A stretch of DNA of 64,000 bases from Betaproteobacteria bacterium (GTDB lineage: Bacteria > Pseudomonadota > Gammaproteobacteria > Burkholderiales > Burkholderiaceae_C), in NCBI GenBank assembly GCA_031367285.1, contig JANLPN010000392.1, forward strand, positions 197 through 64,196, written 5' to 3'. The translations under genes were made by a program, and so were the position numbers. Every line of letters starts with the position of its first letter. The stretch's first letter is position 1. This document shows, piece by piece, positions 52,069-63,715 of this stretch. The notes beneath the pieces are model-generated. The model was not told the DNA's origin and searched no databases. It saw only the letters and a program-made list of their open reading frames with translations.

Positions 52069-52090
52069 AAAAACCGGCGAGGCCCGCCTT

Positions 52091-52504
52091 CTACCTCAGC
52101 AGAACGTTGGTACCGGGCTGGATGTCCGCCTCGTTGATATAGCCTATCGCACCGGGTGTGGCGTTCACGAAGTTGATCACGTCGCTGCTCCTGGAAAGTT
52201 CGCGCGGCGACGCGCCTTTGCCGATGTAGCGGCGCACCGTCCAGTACGCCGTGTATTTGTCTTCGTCCTGGTTCAGATAGACCTGAAGGAAGCGGTTGCG
52301 AACCGTGCTGCCGCTATTGGCGTTGACCGCGGTGACCGAAACGCCGTTGATTTCGATTACCTTGCCGGTATAGATTTTCGCGATGGTCTGGGCATCCAGC
52401 TGGTGCAGACCTGGGTGGCCGATCACCACCACGCCGTCCGCGGCGCGCGCAGCCCCAGCCGCCGATGCCAGCGCCAGGAACAGTGTGCGGATAACGGCCT
52501 TCAT
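52091..52504 (-). CDS. Small exported single-lobe periplasmic-binding-protein-like (PstS-like half) protein
   Basis: Signal peptide to ARA; VNATPGAIGYI motif; 137 aa. Alternative start 52522. Confidence 0.72.
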   Translation of the reverse strand: MKAVIRTLFLALASAAGAARAADGVVVIGHPGLHQLDAQTIAKIYTGKVIEINGVSVTAVNANSGSTVRNRFLQVYLNQDEDKYTAYWTVRRYIGKGASPRELSRSSDVINFVNATPGAIGYINEADIQPGTNVLLR

Positions 52505-52518
52505 GATGGATCGGCTGG

Positions 52519-53850
52519 TCAAAACACGAAGTTATAAGACAGCGACAACACGTTGATGTGCTGGTTGCGGATATTGCTTCCAGGCGCCGCGTCGACCAGG
52601 CTCGAAACCTGGCCGATACGCGTGCGCATCCATTCGCCCTTGAGCTTGCTGCTAGCCGAAAACGAGTACGAGGTTCCTAGGGCCCAGGAACTCTGGTCAT
52701 ACGTGAGCATGCCATCCGCGCCGACACGTTGTGACGCGTTGATCAACGCGGCTCCCGGGATGAAACCGGGCACTGTGTTGTTGTTGACGCTGTTGTACAG
52801 ATTGATTTGCGCGGACTCCGAGCGCAGGAATGCGTAAGACACGTAGGGCGTCCATTTGCCGACATTTTTCAGCAGCGACACGTAGCCGCGGCTGGAGGCA
52901 TTTGCAAAGTCTACATTCGACTGGTTCAGGTAGGTACGGGCAAACTCGCCAATTACACGAAACCCCGAATCGAGACTCACATCCGCACCCAAGGTGATGA
53001 TGGTGTTGTGAAAGGCGGAGGTCGTGCCGACTCCAGGGCCGGGCAGGGAGGGGTCAACCTGGTAGTAACCAATACCTGGTAACAGCGAAACGAAGGGATA
53101 ACTGCTGGGAATCGGCGCGCCGTCCTGCACTCGCCCAACCCCGCGAACGACGGCCATGCGGTAGGTATCCTCGCTTCGTTTGTACGACAGGGCAACAATT
53201 CCACCTTTGAATTCGAAGGCTCTAAACGCCGCTCCGGGTCCTTGACCGCCGGGAATGCCGTCGCGCAGCCAGAAGCGCCCATCGAACTTCGATTTGCCCA
53301 GGTAGCCGTCCAGGCTAAGGTCGCCGCTGGCCAGGCTCCAATTCTTGCTTGCCAATATTCCATTGAAATTGTTACTGGGCGAGATCGAGTACATCTCGGT
53401 TGGCAAGCGGGCAAAATCGTAGGTGACCCCGACGTCGTAACTCTGCGAATAGAGGTAGAACGGAGTGCGTTGCTTGCCGACGCGAAAGAACCAGTCGTCG
53501 CTGGGGCGGTAAGACAAAAAAGCCCAGGAAACAACGCCCCTGTAGTGGCTGTCATTGTCCGAAGCGGGGGCTTCGGTGACCTGGACCGTGGCCCCGAACT
53601 TGTCCGCGAACCTGGCATCCACCTGCAGGCCGGCGACCGAATCACGCCGGAATGTGCCGCCGTTGTTGATAAAGCGCTGGTAGTTGAATGCCTGGTCGGA
53701 ACGCGCGTAGCCCAGTGTGCCAAACCCTGAAACCGAAAGATCGAGCGCCGCCGCGGGAAGCGTCGCCAGGACCAACGCGCCCGCCAGGCACGGTCCTGCC
53801 CAATGGCGCGCAAGGCCTGTCCCCGATCCATTGGTTATCCCATTTTGCAT
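52519..53850 (-). CDS. Outer-membrane beta-barrel/porin-like protein
   Basis: Signal peptide, SGFGTLG start, alternating amphipathic strands, C-terminal LSYNFVF. Confidence 0.8.
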   Translation of the reverse strand: MQNGITNGSGTGLARHWAGPCLAGALVLATLPAAALDLSVSGFGTLGYARSDQAFNYQRFINNGGTFRRDSVAGLQVDARFADKFGATVQVTEAPASDNDSHYRGVVSWAFLSYRPSDDWFFRVGKQRTPFYLYSQSYDVGVTYDFARLPTEMYSISPSNNFNGILASKNWSLASGDLSLDGYLGKSKFDGRFWLRDGIPGGQGPGAAFRAFEFKGGIVALSYKRSEDTYRMAVVRGVGRVQDGAPIPSSYPFVSLLPGIGYYQVDPSLPGPGVGTTSAFHNTIITLGADVSLDSGFRVIGEFARTYLNQSNVDFANASSRGYVSLLKNVGKWTPYVSYAFLRSESAQINLYNSVNNNTVPGFIPGAALINASQRVGADGMLTYDQSSWALGTSYSFSASSKLKGEWMRTRIGQVSSLVDAAPGSNIRNQHINVLSLSYNFVF

Positions 53851-53989
53851 TGGTCGTTATCCGGATAACACAGGCCTGAAACTGCAATGGCAGCAGACTT
53901 GCCGGCACCCCATCATAGTAGGGCAGCAAGCCTGTTTGGCATGCATCGCGCGTCCACATCCACAAGTGTTGGCGCCGCCCAACGGATTG

Positions 53990-56900
53990 TCATGCGCGGT
54001 CCGGACCGTGCGGATTTTCCGGCAGCAGGCGCAGTGCGGCGTCAAATTCGTAGTTGGCGAGTGCCTTCGCAACACGCTGTGCCACGTGAAACGGCAGTTG
54101 CGCGTCAATCTCGGCTTGCCTGGATTTCCATAACTCCCTGGCGTCGTTGTCCCCTTGTTGCAGCAGCTCGCGCAGCTGGGGAAGCCAGTCGGAAAACCCG
54201 GCCGTTGTTGTGTCTTTACCCGGCGGCACGGTATCCCCTGCCCAGGCGGCGTCCGCAGGCGATCTGGCCGTATCGTCGCTACCGAAGTGTGAGCGCAGGG
54301 CGACGCTCAGGGCCAGGACGGCGGTTGCCGCATGGCCGAGTTTGCGGCGCGCCATGTCTATGTCCTTTTGTTGCAGGGCTTGTTCCAGTTCGGCGGCCAG
54401 CGGGTGGACCTGGTCGGCGCCCAGGGTCGCGCACAGGCCTCTCAAGGTGTGGGCCTGCCGGGCCGCATCGTTCCAGTTTTCCGCCGCCAGCAAGGCCTCC
54501 ATAGTCGCTGCAAAATCGCTGTAGTCGAGTGCAAACCGTTGCAGCAACTGCAGATAGAGCGCGGCTTTGCCGTTTGCGTGGCGCAGCCCGGCACGCACAT
54601 TCAAACCAGGGACTTCCGGCAGTGCCAGTCCCTCGCCGCTGTCCGGCGCGCCGGCTGCCGATGCCGTGGTGGGGCCGGGGCGAGCGTCCGCTCCGGCGAC
54701 TTTGAACCCGGCCAGCATGGCATACAGCAGCTCCGGGTCAATCGGCTTGCTGACATGGCCGTTCATGCCCAGCACCAGGCAACGCTGGCGTTCTTCCGCC
54801 ATGGCGTGGGCAGTCATGGCGAAGATGGGCAGTTGCACGTAACGCGCGTCAAGGCGCAACAGGCGCGTCGCTTCGTAGCCGTCCATCACCGGCATTTGCA
54901 GGTCCATCAGCACCACGGCGTAATGGGCCGGCGGGTGGGCGTGGATCAGATCAATCCCCTGCTGCCCGTTGTTGGCCACGTCCACGTGTACACCCCGGCT
55001 CTCCATGAGTTCTACGGCGAGCTGCTGGTTGATCGGGTTGTCTTCGACCAGCAACACCCGCAAACCGCCGAGATCACCGTCCATGCGCTCAGGCGGTGCG
55101 GACAGGGAATCTGCGATTTCATTGCCAGCCAGCGCCTTGACCAGCGCGCGCAGCGATTCCGGCAACACAGGTTTGGGCAGGAAATGCCGCGCTCCCAGTG
55201 TGTTGGCCGTGGCGTGCACGATCTCCGAGTCATATGCGGAGACGATGACCGGTAGGGGAGCCCCGATTCCCGTACGCTCCTGCAGCGCCTTCAACAGACC
55301 CGCTCCGTCAACACGCGGCATCACCCAATCAATCAGCAACAGGTCATAAGGCCGGCCGTCCTCCCGCGCACGGTCCACCATCACCAGGGCCGTATCACCG
55401 TCATCGGCCGAATCGACCCCGCCCGAGGGTGCGGTGCCAACACCCAAGGCACCCAGCAAATCGGCCAGCGCCAGGCGCGCATCCGGCTGGTCGTCCACGA
55501 CCAATACCCGCATGTTGTCCGCGCGCGGTAGCGGGGCCGAGGGTGGCGCGGGGGGCTGCGTCAAGGAAAAGCGGGCCGTGAAAATGAAACTGGAGCCGGC
55601 TGCCGGTACGCTCTCGACCCAGATCCGGCCGCCCATCAGTTCGACGATCCTCTTCGAAATTGCGAGGCCCAGACCGGTTCCGCCATAACGGCGCGTGGTG
55701 GAACCGTCAGCCTGGGTAAATTCCTGAAACAGCCGCCCAATCTGCTCCTGCGTCATGCCAATGCCGGTGTCGCGCACGGTAAAACGCAGCGTCAAGGCGT
55801 CGGCACGGCTCTCCTCGACGGCTACCAAAAGCTTGACATATCCGTGGTGCGTGAACTTCACGGCGTTGGACAGCAGGTTGGTGATGACCTGACCCAGGCG
55901 CAGCGCGTCTCCCATCAGGGCGCCGCTTTCTCCGAGCAGGCGCGACTCGGTCACGTCGAACAGCAGCTCGATGTCTTTCTCGTGGGCACGCTGGCGCAAC
56001 AGGGAGAGCGAATGACCCGCCACATCCTCGATCCGGAAACGGCCTTCCTCAAGATCGAGCTTGCCCGCCTCCACCTTGGAAAAATCAAGGATGTCGTTGA
56101 TGATGCCCAGCAGCGACTTGGCCGCTTCGTGGATCTTGTTGACGTAGTCGTGCTGGCGGGTATTGAGGTCGGTCTTCAAGGCCAGATAGGCCATGCCGAG
56201 AATGGCGTTCATCGGCGTGCGGATTTCATGGCTCATGTTGGCCAGGAACATCGACTTGGCGTGGGTTGCGTCCACGGCCTGTTTGCGGGCGATCTCCAGC
56301 TCTTTCTGCACCTCGAGACGGCGTCCAATGTCATCTTCTATCGCCTGTGCCATCGAGTCCACCGTACGGCCCAGCGCCGTCAATTCGTCGAACCCCCGCA
56401 GCTCCCCAGTGCGTGTTGCGTAGTCGCCGGCTGCCAGGCGATCCGCCCCCTTGCCCAGGCGGTGCACAGGCACCAGAACCCGCTGCCGGATGACACGCAG
56501 GGCAAGCACGGCCATCACAATGGTGGCCCCCATGCTCACCAGAGACAGCAAAATCCAGCGCTCCAGGGCATGACCCGCGGCCGCCACTTCGGCACTGGTG
56601 CGGCGGTCGGTCATGGCCACCAGGCCCGACACGGCCGTGGACAGGTCGGCCTTGAGGGTGTTGTAGGCTTCGCTGTAGACCAGCATGCTGGCAAAATCCA
56701 GCCGCGCCGGGCCGTCCGACACGAACTGCTCGGTCTCCGGGTTGTACAGCCCCTGGGTTGCCGCGAAGGCTTTCTGCTCGATTTGGTTCATTGCCGCGGT
56801 GGCGTCCAGAACACGTTTTAGCGCCAGCAGCTCCGGGTCGCTGAAGCCCTGCGATTTCATCAAGTCGGCAACCGAGCGCTTGACCCCATCCTTGGGGATG

Positions 56901-57235
56901 CCGTGTTTGATACGCCCGGCAATCACGTCGTCCCAATAGGACTTGGGATTGAAGTTGGCCGGGGCCGGTTTTTCACCCTGCCGTACGCTCAGAATGTCGT
57001 AGTAGTACAGCAGGTAACGGGATTCACCGGTGGCCGTGAAGGCCCGCACCAAGCGCGCCAGTTGTTCGGTTTCCTGGTGCAGTTCGTTGGCAAGCTCGAG
57101 GGCTCTCTGGCGGTGGTTCTGGGCCGCCACTACCGCATCGTAAGAGCGCGTGATCAGCACCAGGAACATGGCATTCGCGCCCAGCGCGAAAAGTACCAGT
57201 GCGAAAAACCAGGACGATACCTTGCGCAGCCGCAT
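53990..57235 (-). CDS. Hybrid sensor histidine kinase (TM-sensor-TM-HAMP-HisKA-HATPase-REC-REC-HPt)
   Basis: [33 protein letters not shown]; REC Asp in IDWVMP and MDLQMP; HPt AHTLRG. ATG at 57235. Confidence 0.94.
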
Positions 57236-57246
57236 GATCTGAATCG

Positions 57247-58419
57247 TCAGGCCGGGATGGCTGCCGTGCCTGGCGCGTCGAGATAACCGACTACCGCGTA
57301 GGTCGTTGTAGGGCGCCGGAACCCTTTTAGCTCGAGGTCTCCGATCAGCTTGGTGCTTGCGAATTCGGCCACACTGGTCTGTACCCGCTGCGAAATCAGG
57401 ATCTGCCCGCCGGCCGCCTCGCCGCACAGCCGCGCGGCCAGGTTGGTGACGGTTCCGATGGCACCGTAATCGCGGCGCCCTTCAAAGCCTATGGCGCCTA
57501 TGGTCGCGTAACCCTGCGCTATGCCGATGCCCATCGAAAGCGCATAACCGCGTTGGTGCCACCCTCGCTCCATGCTTGAAAAACGTTCCTGCATGACGAT
57601 GGCCATACGCACCGCCTTGCCCGCCGGGTCGCTTATCTGCAGCGGGTCATTGAAGAAAATCATGATGCCGTCACCGGCAAAGCGCTCCAGCGTACCGCCG
57701 TGCTCCATGACCAGACGGCCCATGGCTTCATGGTATTCGCCGATAACACCCATCACGTCCTCCGGGTCCGATGCCTCGTTAAACGCGGTAAAGCCGCGCA
57801 GGTCGAGAAACACGGCGGCGATTTCCCGGCGGTGGCTTTTCAGCGGGTCTTCGGCCGAACCCGATAACAGCAGGTCCACCACCGAGGGGGAAAAAAAGCG
57901 CTTCAGGCGCCCCAGCCGTTCGACCTGGCCGACACCGTCTGCCACGCGCTGTTCCAGGGTCCGGTTGAGCTCGGAGAGCTCGGACGCCTGCGCCTCCAGC
58001 TGGTCGACCATGCGTTGCAAAACACGCGCCTGTTCGGCCACCGCGAGGTGCGTCTTGATACGCGCCTTGACGATAGGCGGGCTGATGGGCTTGGTGACGT
58101 AGTCCACGCCACCCAGTTCCAGACCACGGGTTTCATCGTCCACCTCACTCATGGCCGTCACGAACACGACCGGGATGGCGCGCGTGGCCGGATTGGCCTT
58201 GAGCCGCTGGCACACCTCGTACCCGTTCAGGCCGGGCATCATGATGTCAAGCAGGATCAGGTCGGGCGGTGTTCCGGAAAACGCCAGTTCCAGTGCCTTT
58301 TCGCCACTGATGGCGACCTTGGTACGGTAGTCGGTTCTGAGAATTTCAACCAGCAGGTCCAGATTGGCGGGCGTATCGTCGACGATCAGAACGCTTTGCT
58401 TGTCGGGTAAGGTAGGCAC
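57247..58419 (-). CDS. Response regulator with class III nucleotide cyclase output domain
   Basis: REC (IVDD, LLDIMMP, KP), coiled linker, FLDLRGFT, RFAGDG, NLAARL. GTG start after AAGGGA; track start 58479 also possible. Confidence 0.92.
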   Translation of the reverse strand: MPTLPDKQSVLIVDDTPANLDLLVEILRTDYRTKVAISGEKALELAFSGTPPDLILLDIMMPGLNGYEVCQRLKANPATRAIPVVFVTAMSEVDDETRGLELGGVDYVTKPISPPIVKARIKTHLAVAEQARVLQRMVDQLEAQASELSELNRTLEQRVADGVGQVERLGRLKRFFSPSVVDLLLSGSAEDPLKSHRREIAAVFLDLRGFTAFNEASDPEDVMGVIGEYHEAMGRLVMEHGGTLERFAGDGIMIFFNDPLQISDPAGKAVRMAIVMQERFSSMERGWHQRGYALSMGIGIAQGYATIGAIGFEGRRDYGAIGTVTNLAARLCGEAAGGQILISQRVQTSVAEFASTKLIGDLELKGFRRPTTTYAVVGYLDAPGTAAIPA

Positions 58420-58520: not shown

Positions 58521-60644
58521 TCAAACAGGGAACTGCCGCACTTCGCTGGTCGGGTCGTCGTGCCGGTGGCGGCCGGCGCTACCGGTTGCTAGCGGGACGG
58601 ATGCCCCGGCACGCGCAAACAGCGGCAAGGTATACAGCGGCGCTGCCACGGTGTGTGTCTGGCCGGCTTCGAAGCGTTCGCCGGTATGGAAGTCAAACCA
58701 GGCGCCGGGTCCCAGGGGCAGGTAGACGGTGCGTGACGTGGCGCCGGCAAACACCACCGGCGCCACCAGCAGGGCGGCGCCCAGCATGAAGTCGTCGCCG
58801 TCCGCAAAACACAGGGGGTCGTCCGGGAAGTCGTAAAACGTGGGCCGGATGATGGGCTGGTGTTGCGCATGCGCGCGCTCGAACAACGACCACAGGTAGG
58901 GCATCAGCGTGTAACGCAGCCGGATCGCCGTGGCTACGTCAGCGGTTACCGTCGGGTGCAGCCAGGGCACGTTGTTGGTTCCGTCGGCTTTCCAGGAGTT
59001 CATCACCATGCGCGGGTTCAGGCAACAGGCCTGCACCCAGCGCAGGAACAGCTCCGGGTCGGGCGAGGGGCCGGCGAAACCGCCCACGTCGTGGCCCACG
59101 TTGAACATGCCGGACAGCGACATCTGCAGGCCGGTGCGGATGTTCCAGCGCAGGGTGTCCCAGCTGGTGGTGTTGTCGCCGGTCCAGGTCTGGGCGTAGC
59201 GTTGCAGGCCCGGCGGGCCGCCGCGCGTGACGCTGAACACCTCCTGGTCCGGCTTGTGTGCGGCCTGCGCCTCGAAACTTGCACGCGTCATCAGCAGGGC
59301 ATGCAGCGGACGCGCGCGGTGCATGGGCAAGGCCTCGCCAAAGCCGTGGCAACTGGCGCCATCGTCCATGACGGCGTATTCGTTGTTGTCGTTCCAGCCG
59401 GCGTTTATGCCGTAGTCCAGCACCTGCTCGCGCAGGCCCTTCTGCCACCAGGCCACGGCGGCGGGGTGGGTGAAGTCCAGGTGCGAGCCTACGCCGTCCC
59501 AGAACTGTTCGACCACCGGCTGGCCGCTGGTGGCGTCATGCACGAAGCCGCCTTGTGCCAGCACGTCGGGGTAGGCCGGGTGGTCGTCCAGCAGGCAGGG
59601 CTTGATATTGGCCACCAGCTGCATGCCGGCGGCCTGGAAGCGGGCATTAAGCGCCTTGGGGTCCGGGAACTTGCTGTTGTTCCAGGTAAACACATAACGC
59701 CGTTTGCCGCGCGATGAATAACCCGAGCCATAGTGGAACGAGGAACACGGGATGCCTTCGGATTCGATGCGGGTAATAAAGGCATCGAGCTGCGCTTGGG
59801 CGTCCGGCGCATCCGCCAGGCCCATGGCCGTCTGGGCAAAACCGAGTGTCCAGCGCGGTGGCAGGTGGGTGCCACCGATCAGGCGCGTGAACTGCGCAAT
59901 CACCTCGCCCGGCGTGGCGCCTGCCATCAGGTAGTAGTCCAGGTCGCCGTCGTCGATCTCGACGTAGCGGAACAACTCGTGGTAGTTGTCGTGTTCACAA
60001 CCCAGGTCGAAGGTACACGCCGAAAGCGTGTCGTAGTAGATGCCGTACCACTGGCCGGCGGCGGCGCGCGTAAGCACAAAAGGCCAGTGTTTGTAAAGCG
60101 GGTCGCCGCGCTGGGGGTCGTAGCCCAGCGAGTCCAGCGCCAAGGTGCGCAGGCGCCGGCCGTGCAGGTCGAGCGGGCCGGTCTTGTCGCCCAGGCCGTA
60201 ATAACGCTCCGCGCGATTGCGTTGCAGGTAATGCCGCACGGCACCGGTACGCGGACTCGCGAAATAGGCCGAAGTCGCGCGGTCGCTTGCCAGCGGGCGG
60301 CCCTGCCCGTCATGCCACGCCAGTGTCAACGGGTCCTTGCGCACCGTAAGCGACAGACTGTCGGTGCACAGACACACTTGCCCGTCGCGCTCGGTGAGCT
60401 GCGCGCTGGGGCGGCTGAAGCCGCTGGTGTCTTCGCGCCTTCTGCCGGACCAGGCTACGTCCTGGCCCGGCTGGGGGGCGATGGCCCAGGTGCGCGGTTC
60501 GCGAAAACCGTTGGCCGGTTTGTAGCGCACGCGAAACAGGCTGCTCTCCAGCACCTGAATATTGAAGCTGGCGCCACCGTCCAGCGACAGATCCACGCCG
60601 TGTTCGTGGGTGAGTGCGATGCGTACCGGCCCGAGGGTCTTCAT
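58521..60644 (-). CDS. Glycoside hydrolase family 31
   Basis: YYGLGDKTG, WNDNNE nucleophile motif, WTGDN acid/base, GHDVGGF, LRYTLMPYL. Confidence 0.92.
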   Translation of the reverse strand: MKTLGPVRIALTHEHGVDLSLDGGASFNIQVLESSLFRVRYKPANGFREPRTWAIAPQPGQDVAWSGRRREDTSGFSRPSAQLTERDGQVCLCTDSLSLTVRKDPLTLAWHDGQGRPLASDRATSAYFASPRTGAVRHYLQRNRAERYYGLGDKTGPLDLHGRRLRTLALDSLGYDPQRGDPLYKHWPFVLTRAAAGQWYGIYYDTLSACTFDLGCEHDNYHELFRYVEIDDGDLDYYLMAGATPGEVIAQFTRLIGGTHLPPRWTLGFAQTAMGLADAPDAQAQLDAFITRIESEGIPCSSFHYGSGYSSRGKRRYVFTWNNSKFPDPKALNARFQAAGMQLVANIKPCLLDDHPAYPDVLAQGGFVHDATSGQPVVEQFWDGVGSHLDFTHPAAVAWWQKGLREQVLDYGINAGWNDNNEYAVMDDGASCHGFGEALPMHRARPLHALLMTRASFEAQAAHKPDQEVFSVTRGGPPGLQRYAQTWTGDNTTSWDTLRWNIRTGLQMSLSGMFNVGHDVGGFAGPSPDPELFLRWVQACCLNPRMVMNSWKADGTNNVPWLHPTVTADVATAIRLRYTLMPYLWSLFERAHAQHQPIIRPTFYDFPDDPLCFADGDDFMLGAALLVAPVVFAGATSRTVYLPLGPGAWFDFHTGERFEAGQTHTVAAPLYTLPLFARAGASVPLATGSAGRHRHDDPTSEVRQFPV

Positions 60645-60648
60645 CGGC

Positions 60649-61671
60649 CTACAGCCTGCGGCCGTCTTTGTCAAAGCAGTGCAGATGTTCACGCGGCAAG
60701 GCCAGGCGCACCGTGTCGCCACCCGTGATGGTGGTCTGCCCGCCGCAGACCATCTCGAACGGCGTGTCGCCACCCACGCTGCCGTGCAGCAGGCTGGTGG
60801 AGCCGAGCTGCTCGACCGAAGCGACCTGCATCGCAATCGGGCCGTCGATGGCGCCGAACACCGCGTGTTCGGGCCGCAGGCCTATCGTATGCGTGCCCTG
60901 CGGCAGCAGCACCGCGCCTTGTTGCGGCGGCAACAGGGCGATGGGCAGGAAGTTCATGCGCGGGCTGCCGATGAACCCGGCCACAAAGGTATTTACGGGG
61001 CGGTTGTACAGCTCCAGCGGCGCACCGACCTGCTCTATCCGCCCGCCGCGCAGCACCACGATTTTGTCGGCCATGGTCATGGCTTCGACCTGGTCGTGCG
61101 TGACGTAGACCATGGTCGCTTGGAGCCGTGCGTGCAGCTCGCGGATTTCGGCGCGCATCGACACACGCAACTCGGCATCCAGGTTGGACAGGGGTTCGTC
61201 GAACAGGAACAGCTTGGGTTCGCGCACAATGGCCCGGCCGATCGCCACGCGCTGGCGCTGGCCGCCCGAGAGCTGGGTCGGCTTGCGCTGCAACAGCTCA
61301 CCCAGGCGCAGCAGCGTGGCCGCGGCGCCGACCTTGGCTTCGATCTGGGCCTTGGGCATCCCGAGGTTCTCCAGACCGAACGCCATGTTGTCGTACACAC
61401 TCATGTGCGGGTACAGGGCATACGACTGGAACACCATGGCGCAGCCGCGGTGGGCGGCCGACACGGTGTTGACGTTCTGGCCGTCGATAAGAATGTCGCC
61501 GCTGCTCGGCGCTTCGAGCCCCGCGATCACGCGCAGCAGCGTTGACTTGCCACAACCCGAAGGCCCGACAAACACCACGAACTCGCCGTCCGTGACCGAC
61601 AGGTCGATGCCATGCAAGATGGTGGTGCGATCGAAAGTCTTGACGACCTTGGATAGTTCAAGAGTGGCCAC
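60649..61671 (-). CDS. Sugar ABC transporter ATP-binding protein (MalK/UgpC type)
   Basis: GPSGCGKST, LSGGQRQRVAIGRA, DEPLSNLDA, YVTHDQVEA. Confidence 0.96.
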   Translation of the reverse strand: MATLELSKVVKTFDRTTILHGIDLSVTDGEFVVFVGPSGCGKSTLLRVIAGLEAPSSGDILIDGQNVNTVSAAHRGCAMVFQSYALYPHMSVYDNMAFGLENLGMPKAQIEAKVGAAATLLRLGELLQRKPTQLSGGQRQRVAIGRAIVREPKLFLFDEPLSNLDAELRVSMRAEIRELHARLQATMVYVTHDQVEAMTMADKIVVLRGGRIEQVGAPLELYNRPVNTFVAGFIGSPRMNFLPIALLPPQQGAVLLPQGTHTIGLRPEHAVFGAIDGPIAMQVASVEQLGSTSLLHGSVGGDTPFEMVCGGQTTITGGDTVRLALPREHLHCFDKDGRRL

Positions 61672-61680
61672 GCGTGTCCT

Positions 61681-62730
61681 TCATTTGACGCCGGCACTGG
61701 CAATGCCGGTGGTGATGTATTTCTGCAGGAACGCAAACACCAGTGTGATCGGAATCAGCGTGATGACGGTCATGGCCAGCAGGTAGTGCCACTGCGTATT
61801 TAGCTCACCCTGGAACGAGTTGAGCGCCAGTTGCAGGGTAAAAAATTCGGACTTGGACAACACGATCAAGGGCAGCAGAAAATCGTTCCAGCGCCACATG
61901 ACCGAAAAGATGGCCAGCACGGCCAGGGCCGGAGCCGCCAGCGGCAGGATGATCTTCCAGTAGATACGCCACTCGCTGGCATGGTCCATACGCGCGGCCT
62001 CCAGCAATTCGTCGGGAATGGTGAGCATGTACTGGCGCAGCAGGAACACGCCCGTCGGTGTGGCAATGGCCGGCAGGATCACGCCCCACAGGCTGTTGAG
62101 CAGGCCCACGCTGTTGATGACCAGGAACACCGGCACCAGGATGATGGTGGGCGGAATCATGAGCGTGGCGATGATCAGCAGGAACACGGCCTTCTGGCCG
62201 CGGAACTGGTACTTGGACAAGGCAAACGCGGCCATTGAATTTATCAGCAGCGTGAGCAGGGTGGCCACCACGGTGATGAATACGCTGTTCCACAAATATT
62301 TGCCAAAGCTGAACTTGCCGAACAGATCGGTGTAGTTGCCGGGGGCGAACTTGAGCTCGTTGATGGGTTTGCGGTCGTTGATGTTGACGCGTATTTCGGT
62401 CGAGGGGTTGGCCGGGTCCACCATGGTGGCCATGATGCCGATGCGCCGCACCTGCGCCATCTCGCGCGTATTGCCCTGCCCGTCTTTGGTGCTGAACAGC
62501 GGCAATGGCTTCTCGTGGCCGGCGACCAGCACCGACTTCTGGCTGTAGGGCAGGAACGAGGGCGGGAACTGGCTGATGGCGCTTTCGGTCTTGAGCGAAG
62601 ACATTACCAGCCACAGGATGGGCGCAAACATCGTAAACAGGCCCACACACAGGTAAACGTAGCTGAGCCAGTCGGTCCAGTCGAGCCGGTTGTGGCCCCG
62701 TGTCCGGGTAAGGAAGGTAGCCGCCGACAT
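61681..62730 (-). CDS. Carbohydrate ABC transporter permease with large periplasmic insert
   Basis: EAA loop ELLEAARMDHAS, WRWNDF; about 70-aa soluble insert after TM1. Confidence 0.93.
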   Translation of the reverse strand: MSAATFLTRTRGHNRLDWTDWLSYVYLCVGLFTMFAPILWLVMSSLKTESAISQFPPSFLPYSQKSVLVAGHEKPLPLFSTKDGQGNTREMAQVRRIGIMATMVDPANPSTEIRVNINDRKPINELKFAPGNYTDLFGKFSFGKYLWNSVFITVVATLLTLLINSMAAFALSKYQFRGQKAVFLLIIATLMIPPTIILVPVFLVINSVGLLNSLWGVILPAIATPTGVFLLRQYMLTIPDELLEAARMDHASEWRIYWKIILPLAAPALAVLAIFSVMWRWNDFLLPLIVLSKSEFFTLQLALNSFQGELNTQWHYLLAMTVITLIPITLVFAFLQKYITTGIASAGVK

Positions 62731-62734
62731 TGCC

Positions 62735-63715
62735 TTACCTCGCCTTCTTGCCCGCATCGCTGGCGCGTGTGAGCTTGAGTTGTGCGAACGTGAGCAGCAT
62801 CAGGCCCAGCGCCAGCACCAGAGACGCCGCCGCCGCCAGGCCATACAGATGGATCTGCTCCGCAAAACCGGTCTGGTAGATGAACTGCACGATGAACGTG
62901 GTGGCCGAGCCGGGGCCGCCACCGGTCAGCACAAATACTTCGTCAAAGATCTGCACGGCGCGGATCATGGCCAGCACCAGCACCACGATCAGGTTGGGCA
63001 TCAGCAAGGGCAGCGTGATGCGGCGCAGCGTGCGCCACGGCGAGGCAGCGTCCATCTCGGCGGCCTCGTACATGTCTTTGGGTATGGCCTGCAGGCCGGC
63101 CAGCAGGATCAAGGTGTAGAAACCCATGTGGGCCCAGATCGATACGAAGATAGTCCAGAAAAAAGCCCAGCTGGCGTTGGTGAGCCAGTCCACCGGTGCG
63201 GCGCCGGCCGCCACCAGTCCGGCGTTGAAAACCCCCTGGCTTTGCAACAGCCATTTCCAGATCAGCGCCACCACCACCGGCGACAGCAGCACGGGATAGA
63301 AGAACACACCGCGCCAGAAGCCGCGCCCGATGATCTTGCGGTTCAACACCAGCGCGGTCAGCAGCGACAGCAGCACCATCAGCACCACCTGGATCAGGCT
63401 GAACTTGACGGTATTCAAAATGGCGCGCCAGAACACGTCCTTGCGGCAGGTCTGGATGTCGAAATAGTCGCGGCATTCGAGCAGGATGCCGAAGTTCTCG
63501 CCGCCCGTAAACGGCCGCTTCAAGGGCAACAACTCCACGCCGCCGGTGGTGGCGTAGACCAGGTTGATCAGGATGGGCAAAAAAGTGAACAGCCCGAACA
63601 CCAGCAGGTTCGGGCCGACAAACATCCAGCCGATACGGGACAGGCCGAGCCGGCGTTGACCGGCCCGGAACAGCGGCTCAAACAGGTTGAAGAAAAGGCC
63701 GGGCAGGCGCGACAC
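62735..63715 (-). CDS. Carbohydrate ABC transporter permease
   Basis: LAGLQAIPKDMYEAAEMD, LTGGGPG. Confidence 0.94.
   Translation of the reverse strand: MSRLPGLFFNLFEPLFRAGQRRLGLSRIGWMFVGPNLLVFGLFTFLPILINLVYATTGGVELLPLKRPFTGGENFGILLECRDYFDIQTCRKDVFWRAILNTVKFSLIQVVLMVLLSLLTALVLNRKIIGRGFWRGVFFYPVLLSPVVVALIWKWLLQSQGVFNAGLVAAGAAPVDWLTNASWAFFWTIFVSIWAHMGFYTLILLAGLQAIPKDMYEAAEMDAASPWRTLRRITLPLLMPNLIVVLVLAMIRAVQIFDEVFVLTGGGPGSATTFIVQFIYQTGFAEQIHLYGLAAAASLVLALGLMLLTFAQLKLTRASDAGKKAR

Follow-up and report, generated by a model that had tools for sequence, protein, structure and literature searches.

A candidate envelope-spanning sensory cassette with a porin, a half-size binding protein, a hybrid kinase and a receiver-cyclase

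Several bacterial membrane sensors depend on a binding protein for signal perception. The reviewed examples are TorT-TorS, LuxP-LuxQ, HptA-HptS, XylFII-LytS, ChvE-VirA, CBP-ChiS, and PstS-CtpL; the review deals only with full-size binding proteins and never mentions a porin (PMC8050422). These sensor kinases and chemoreceptors are the nearest known systems to the locus described here, which lies at 52091-58419 of a 64,000-nucleotide stretch (the window) of contig JANLPN010000392.1 from a Betaproteobacteria bacterium. The locus consists of four co-oriented genes on the minus strand. In the order of transcription, they encode a response regulator in which a receiver (REC) domain is joined to a class III nucleotidyl cyclase (REC-cyclase), a hybrid histidine kinase, an outer-membrane porin, and a secreted single lobe of a PstS-type periplasmic binding protein (PBP), called mini-PBP below. 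An earlier reading of the letters alone, made without database searches (the sequence-only reading), had placed these genes and domains here, and translation, Pfam and profile matches, and a structure model of the porin confirmed them. We see an even chance that the four genes constitute one envelope-spanning sensory cassette, with the porin and the mini-PBP as the input, the kinase as the relay, and a cyclic nucleotide as the output.

The cassette resembles the reviewed systems in that a protein of the PBP fold accompanies a membrane sensor with a helical periplasmic domain. Like the cassette kinase, TorS is a hybrid kinase with REC and histidine phosphotransfer (HPt) domains, and the PstS-CtpL system has the same PBP_like_2 fold as the mini-PBP. 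However, the binding proteins of all the reviewed systems have two lobes with a cleft, whereas the mini-PBP has one lobe that appears to lack most of the PstS ligand residues. The cassette also differs in its dedicated porin gene and in its output, which is a second-messenger enzyme instead of a DNA-binding regulator. A full-text search of the literature found no description of a porin/half-PBP/kinase/cyclase cassette. The cassette can be seen as a variant of binding-protein-dependent sensing, with a fair chance that it forms a distinct, undescribed type of receptor.

The nearest three-layer analogue is the YfiB-YfiR-YfiN system (TpbB; HmsCDE), which also has a protein in the outer membrane, a small partner in the periplasm, and a signaling protein in the inner membrane that controls a nucleotide second messenger. 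However, YfiB is an OmpA-like lipoprotein and not a porin, YfiR is a DUF4154 protein and not a PBP lobe, and YfiN is the cyclase itself, with no phosphorelay. OmpA-like lipoprotein, DUF4154, and membrane GGDEF families are all absent from the Pfam matches of the cassette. The two systems therefore have no family in common, and their sole link is a distant fusion protein, P0173. In RpfC-RpfG, as in the cassette, a hybrid kinase with REC and HPt domains feeds a second-messenger enzyme fused to a receiver. RpfC senses a fatty-acid signal via a multi-pass membrane input, and neither a porin nor a binding protein is known to be involved.

Co-conservation of the genes and exchange of the output

A profile search with the mini-PBP detected 303 relatives in contigs representing one genome per species, and 79 loci were taken for a survey. 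A porin gene is located directly upstream of the mini-PBP gene, on the same strand, in 63 of the 65 loci with room upstream. The same sensor domain, in a kinase or another protein and at least 40% identical, is present in 43 of the 48 loci with enough flank by an automatic count, and L024, where the hits to it are split, would make 44. Among the carriers are Comamonadaceae, Oxalobacteraceae, Gallionellaceae, Nitrotoga, Thiobacillus, Rhodocyclales, Methylococcales, and Geobacteraceae. The order of the genes varies across them, and the partners remain constant. Recurrence in dozens of genomes and several orders puts the arrangement far beyond chance.

The same picture emerged from 251 genomes that were sampled independently from the window's order. 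At thresholds of E < 1e-25 for close orthologues of the mini-PBP and E < 1e-70 for those of the sensor, both were found in the same six genomes (G000, G071, G130, G183, G198, and G225) and in no others. The six are the window's own genome and members of four genera in four families, and wherever the contigs allow it to be seen, the mini-PBP and sensor genes are 3-6 kb apart. Co-conservation had been set beforehand as the test that could refute the sequence-only reading, and the reading withstood it in both samples. The four genes belong together as a unit.

Within this unit, the mini-PBP and the sensor domain are the most tightly connected. Over 38 loci, the distances of the mini-PBP and the sensor are correlated (Spearman 0.61; 0.55 with the porin contribution removed), compared with 0.35 (partial 0.25) for the mini-PBP and the porin. 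In L063 and L079, the mini-PBP gene directly precedes a gene in which the sensor domain is fused to a PP2C phosphatase, and no porin is present; the gene upstream is not porin-like and has no porin C-terminal signature. On this evidence, the core consists of mini-PBP and sensor, with the porin as a third member that is normally present but can be replaced.

The enzyme beside this front end is not always a cyclase. REC-class III cyclases were found in 15 loci, all of them close relatives of the window. REC-HD-GYP proteins, which have the architecture of RpfG, are present in 21 loci. REC-GGDEF proteins occur in 12 loci, where they are accompanied by an AttH/CrtC-lipocalin gene. In four loci, the sensor domain itself is fused to HAMP and a SpoIIE/PP2C phosphatase. 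A DUF6272 gene adjoins the sensor-PP2C gene in L042 and L055. In L079 it is on the opposite strand at a distance of about 1.7 kb, and in L063 none was found. The Duganella group has an additional REC-REC-kinase after the mini-PBP. The sequence-only reading had mentioned porin/mini-PBP pairs beside various signaling outputs, in agreement with the cyclase, HD-GYP, GGDEF, and PP2C outputs seen here.

The receivers point to the regulator that the kinase serves. Whatever its output, the receiver beside an orthologous kinase is 56-60% identical to that of the window, whereas the identity is 27-37% for unrelated receivers, among them the two within the kinase itself. This difference identifies the adjacent REC-cyclase as the cognate partner, as had been proposed in the sequence-only reading. 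The loci show that different second-messenger enzymes have been connected to a single conserved input and relay.

Two loci, L042 (1662-4647) and L055, carry two copies of the sensor domain each. One copy is fused to HAMP-PP2C and is accompanied by a stand-alone receiver and the DUF6272 protein. The other is part of a hybrid kinase with REC-HD-GYP, porin, and mini-PBP. The arrangement of the first copy presumably resembles the SiaA/SiaB partner-switch of Pseudomonas aeruginosa.

Components of the cassette

The mini-PBP gene (52091..52504, minus strand) encodes a protein of 137 amino acids, with the start at ATG 52504 refined by homologues. The signal peptide ends at ARA/ADG, leaving a mature protein of about 116 amino acids. 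The protein has no Pfam match and aligns solely to the second lobe of PstS-type proteins (positions 118-217 of 295 in TIGR02136; residues 87-174 of PDB 4ecf, E 6e-4). It is therefore not a two-lobe PstS or type II binding protein, and the single-lobe PBP-like protein of the sequence-only reading is upheld. In an alignment of 16 sequences, 55 of the 137 columns are invariant. No inner-membrane transporter recurs beside the porin/mini-PBP pair in the 79 loci, including the ABC transporter genes expected of a PstS-type system. With just one lobe, the protein presumably could not engage an ABC importer in the manner of ordinary binding proteins.

The mini-PBP belongs to a large family. When its profile was searched against 1.84 billion representatives, it matched 4026 clusters (at 50% identity) at E 1e-3 and 556 at 1e-10. 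Almost all of these clusters are 130-150 amino acids long, so the half size is the rule of the family and not a truncation. About 18% of the sampled genomes of the order carry a family member. Four secreted members (P0175, P0190, P0198, and P0215) are tandem doubles, and both of their copies map to positions ~86-191 of PBP_like_2. These doubles are indirect evidence for a mini-PBP that acts in pairs. In P0211, two copies follow a BlaR1/M56 membrane transducer as its extracytoplasmic part, and in P0173, one copy precedes a YfiR/HmsC-like DUF4154 domain. Judging from their domains, these fusions place the fold in signaling proteins.

The porin gene (52519..53850, minus strand) encodes 443 amino acids including a signal peptide. 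Its AlphaFold2 (AF2) model has a pLDDT of 90.7 and a pTM of 0.85. Foldseek aligned the model with VhChiP, OmpM1, OprB, OmpF, Omp32, and others (E 3e-12 to 1e-9, TM-score ~0.5, 10-13% identity), which bears out the outer-membrane barrel of the sequence-only reading. By our reading of the DSSP string of the model, the barrel has 16 strands. Its L3 loop is long and includes short helices, loop 7 is unusual in having two helices, and the chain ends in YNFVF. Barrel fold, L3 loop, and C-terminal aromatic residue are thus those of a 16-strand porin. The window porin has no Pfam match, and a search of the PDB with a porin profile gave nothing useful; some of its homologues weakly match OMP_b-brl, Porin_4, or Porin_O_P. 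It resembles the specific 16-strand porins VhChiP (a chitoporin), OprB, and OprP/OprO in its fold, in the Phe signature at its C-terminus, and in an L3 loop that is long and conserved. It differs from them in that its identity to any solved porin is only ~10-13% at a TM-score of ~0.5, and in its atypical loop-7 helices. Over 53 homologues, the most conserved parts are L3, L1, and the stretch R115-P116, which we read as a periplasmic turn in the model. The high conservation of the constriction loop L3 suggests a specific channel.

The pair of porin and mini-PBP genes, present as one copy each in the window's genome, has multiplied locally elsewhere. L035 has three porin paralogues and two mini-PBPs, L030 and L049 have two porin/mini-PBP pairs each, and L083 (G164:C1:781000-793000) has two distant pairs in tandem. 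Open frames of 577-578 amino acids in G164 were considered as a porin/mini-PBP fusion; the matches are in different frames, and the genes are separate. The porin PP_2662 of the ped cluster has a different gene context without a mini-PBP and was set apart by its description only (PMC12997753).

The hybrid kinase (53990..57235, minus strand; 1081 amino acids) was assigned the start ATG 57235, since the alignment with every homologue begins at residue 65 of the long open reading frame (ORF). Its Pfam domains are HAMP, HisKA, HATPase_c, two Response_reg, and Hpt. The HAMP domain (56333..56491; PF00672, E 6e-8) is followed by the catalytic core of HisKA and HATPase_c (55571..56260; PF00512 and PF02518), in which the translation contains the H-box SHEIRTP. 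Two receivers occupy 54713..55510 (REC1 about 55510-55133, REC2 55057-54713), and the acidic pair, the phospho-Asp, and the Lys are discernible in both. The HPt domain, with an HTLRG motif, lies at 54335..54550 (PF01627, E 6e-12). With the H-box, HATPase_c, receivers, and HPt in one chain, the protein is a hybrid (unorthodox) histidine kinase. Its scores against the NCBIfam equivalogs of BarA (462 bits, cut-off 890) and TorS (396, cut-off 676) are too low for either, so by sequence it shares their architecture class and is not an orthologue.

The kinase ends in a conserved tail of about 60 amino acids (54017..54196; residues 1078-1137 of the long ORF) that matches no Pfam family. Its pattern, WLPxLxxLL...LW...LP...AL..F.FD.A..LLP, is also kept in orthologues without REC2 and HPt (L033, L034, L036, L037, and L039). 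The tail may be a docking or regulatory element.

The periplasmic sensor domain of about 190 amino acids lies between the first and second transmembrane helices (TM1 and TM2; 56570..57148). The model (pLDDT 86) is an all-helical bundle with two conserved non-helical inserts. Its best Foldseek match, the sensor-TM-HAMP fragment of NarQ, is weak (E 0.018, TM-score 0.32). No Pfam family matched the domain at E 0.1, and no PDB sequence matched it outside TM2-HAMP. Across 47 homologues, 41 columns are invariant. The motif TGExRYL may resemble CHASE3. The domain seems to represent a ligand-binding domain family without a Pfam model, and about 20 of the 251 genomes contain more distant relatives (E 1e-22 to 1e-50). 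The cassette sensors have the core motifs ILxIRxGxxPxP, YWD, and MKxxGF in common with the relatives found in chemoreceptors. RYLx[18 protein letters not shown] and FVSDGxPxLDFAS are invariant in the sensors linked to a mini-PBP and absent from the chemoreceptor relatives, and these two patches are candidate docking sites.

The regulator gene (57247..58419, minus strand) encodes 390 amino acids from GTG 58419, which is preceded by the ribosome site AAGGGA. Pfam recognizes a Response_reg domain (E 1e-24; about 58392-58057) and a Guanylate_cyc domain (E 4.7e-18; about 57828-57292). The best solved relatives of the latter are CyaB of Pseudomonas aeruginosa (3r5g, E 6e-32) and Cya2 of Synechocystis (2w01, 2e-27). 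Aligned to these structures, the window protein and 15 orthologues keep both metal-binding Asp residues and the transition-state Asn and Arg, as CyaB and Cya2 do, which makes the domain a class III nucleotidyl cyclase. On these residues, the cassette cyclase is probably active.

The pair of residues that specifies the base differs between these enzymes: it is Lys/Thr in CyaB, Glu/Gly in Cya2, and Arg/Gly in the window protein, whose input is a receiver domain. Ten of the 15 orthologues (L003-L027) have His and Gly. Neither combination is the adenylate cyclase signature (Lys plus Asp or Thr). The guanylate cyclase signature (Glu plus Cys, Gly, Ser, or Ala) is likewise missing, as the Gly agrees with Cya2 and the first residue is Arg or His. 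We know of no characterized cyclase with Arg/His and Gly at these positions. Because the pair is non-canonical, the product of the cyclase cannot be assigned from sequence. Glu does occupy the first position, as in guanylate cyclases, in the more distant cyclases of the L054 and L079 cassettes.

Proposed mechanism and alternatives

In the reading with an even chance, the porin and the mini-PBP would together deliver the input to the kinase, at its helical periplasmic domain. A small solute would enter via the porin and be held by the mini-PBP, which would act either as a pair of lobes or jointly with the sensor domain. The loaded mini-PBP would then alter the state of the kinase dimer via TM2 and HAMP. 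Phosphate would pass from the His of the H-box to the Asp of REC2, from there to the His of the HPt domain, and finally to the Asp of the adjacent receiver. Phosphorylation of this receiver would allow the class III cyclase domains to pair and to make a cyclic nucleotide. We infer the contacts of the mini-PBP with the porin and with the sensor, the ligand, the direction of regulation, the path of phosphotransfer, and the nucleotide made. This model is favored because the constriction loop is conserved, the porin is exchangeable, and pairs without a porin exist. It also draws on the tight, co-oriented gene arrangement with a terminator-like hairpin at its end, the constancy of the front end across exchanged outputs, the lack of an accompanying inner-membrane transporter, the tandem doubles and the BlaR1/M56 member of the mini-PBP family, and the complete set of catalytic residues in the cyclase.

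A bolder version is more tentative, and we would sooner expect it to fail than to hold. It proposes that the porin, the single-lobe protein of the PstS fold, and the helical sensor are physically coupled in a portable trans-envelope receptor built around half a binding protein. The half protein would function as a homodimer or share a composite site with the sensor, the receptor could be plugged into any second-messenger output, and the cyclase of the Comamonadaceae may make a product other than cyclic AMP.

Several observations weigh against the solute-sensing cassette. The ligands of phosphate in lobe 2 of E. coli PstS are Arg135, Ser139, Gly140, and Thr141. Arg135 corresponds to an invariant Ala62 in the mini-PBP, Ser139 to Ser66, Gly140 to a variable residue, and Thr141 to an invariant Val68. 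What remains, in distant family members as well, is the Ser where the helix begins and, three residues on, an Arg. The underlying alignments are weak but concordant among 4ecf, 4q8r, and 4gd5, and with moderate confidence the mini-PBP appears to have lost most of the PstS phosphate ligands. The classical cleft site would thus be absent. Phosphate sensing, which the PstS fold and the weak Porin_O_P matches had brought to mind, was rejected for the same loss of ligand residues. Another difficulty comes from the porins of L003 (6176-7396) and L027 (8760-9983), which are only ~37% identical to that of the window, whereas the mini-PBP and the sensor there reach 64-85%. The porin gene was exchanged between lineages while the mini-PBP and the kinase stayed, which argues against a tight fit of porin and mini-PBP. 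Orthologous kinases of Thiobacillus and Nitrotoga stop after REC1 and the ~60-amino-acid tail, without REC2 and HPt, although their receiver partner is unchanged, so that not every member of the family can use the HPt step. Two distant sensor relatives that were examined are chemoreceptors in the range of 665-675 amino acids (L089:2696-4690 and L090:2964-4988, both on the minus strand) with no mini-PBP adjacent, and the kinase might accordingly bind its signal directly. Finally, RNA data gave no support for co-transcription: no RNA run contained the window's cassette, and two metatranscriptomes compared with the Nitrotoga locus L044 yielded just short fragments and matches to conserved motifs.

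Some of these points fit other accounts better. The mini-PBP could be a periplasmic adaptor bound either to the sensor or to the porin from its periplasmic side, in a partner-switch or a device that senses the state of the envelope, as in YfiB-YfiR-YfiN or in RcsF with outer-membrane proteins. In a partner-switch, it would shuttle from porin to sensor and report how the outer membrane is faring. The signal would then be the porin or the outer membrane itself (its occupancy, folding, or surface contact) and not a free solute. This would explain why the phosphate-type site is largely lost while the mini-PBP is extremely conserved over its whole surface, and why R115-P116, if it is indeed a periplasmic turn, is among the most conserved parts of the porin. 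The natural fusion of a mini-PBP to the DUF4154 domain in P0173 points the same way, as do the outputs, most of which are enzymes of cyclic di-GMP (c-di-GMP), as in YfiBNR. However, the constriction loop of the porin is conserved, as is usual in solute channels. The porin is also the partner with the lowest conservation, has at times been exchanged, and is neither a lipoprotein nor equipped with an OmpA-like domain. The pairs of L063 and L079 without an adjoining porin are also difficult to accommodate. We consider an envelope-state sensor of this kind doubtful.

Direct sensing by the helical domain of the kinase is unlikely, too, and in our judgment a little more so. The porin and the mini-PBP would here be an accessory unit that shares only the operon: a channel with a periplasmic plug, a chaperone, or a scavenger for the same compound, sending no signal to the kinase. 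Homologous sensor domains in chemoreceptors (E 1e-39 to 1e-50) do work without a mini-PBP and share the core motifs of the cassette sensors. However, an accessory unit would hardly account for the perfect co-occurrence of close mini-PBP and sensor orthologues, for their correlated distances, for the mini-PBP that adjoins the sensor without a porin in L063 and L079, or for the two invariant patches confined to sensors linked to a mini-PBP. A chance neighborhood, with a porin and a mini-PBP that merely adjoin an unrelated two-component pair, has the 139-nucleotide gap between the kinase and porin genes on its side. It was ruled out by the locus survey, in which the same partners recur in varied gene order in dozens of loci across several orders, and we regard it as extremely improbable.

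Genomic context and significance

The gap between the regulator and kinase genes is 11 nucleotides and that between the porin and mini-PBP genes is 14. A GC-rich, terminator-like hairpin followed by a T-run (52076..52088, minus strand; a consensus match only) lies 3 nucleotides past the mini-PBP stop codon, and a convergent IclR gene follows beyond it. Upstream, a sugar-type ABC operon (58521-63715, minus strand) comprises two permeases and a MalK-like ATPase with a TOBE domain. Its last gene encodes a GH31 glycosidase (58521..60644, with Pfam GH31 domains) and lies 101 nucleotides from the cassette on the same strand, and read-through transcription from this operon into the cassette is possible. 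GH31 is directly upstream of the cassette only in the three close relatives L010, L018, and L027, and a GH31 fragment lies about 3.5 kb upstream in L012 and L016. It was therefore treated as local synteny, and the glycosidase is probably not part of the cassette.

Other neighbors recur in particular lineages. In Thiobacillus and Nitrotoga, an AttH/CrtC-lipocalin gene (Pfam CrtC and Lipocalin_9) is inserted between the REC-GGDEF and porin genes (L033-L034, L036-L037, L039, L041, L044, L046-L047, L051-L052, and L058). A Gallionella locus has such a gene just downstream of the cassette (L070:10900-12120). In L067 and L070, the porin/mini-PBP pair comes after NMO-like, FadE-type, and FadD-type genes. 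The lipocalin and Fad-type neighbors may be a sign that the signal is a lipid or a fatty acid.

One subfamily of mini-PBPs is strictly paired with a single subfamily of sensors, which offers a clean experimental handle, and cultured carriers are available in Derxia gummosa DSM 723, Duganella and Pseudoduganella strains, and Ideonella sp. A 288. If the trio of porin, mini-PBP, and sensor acts as a unit, it would represent a new and widespread route in gram-negative bacteria from an outside signal to kinases and to enzymes of c-di-GMP or cyclic nucleotides. The mini-PBP would then be the first natural half-sized binding protein that serves as part of a sensor, which would bear on the evolution of two-lobe binding proteins.

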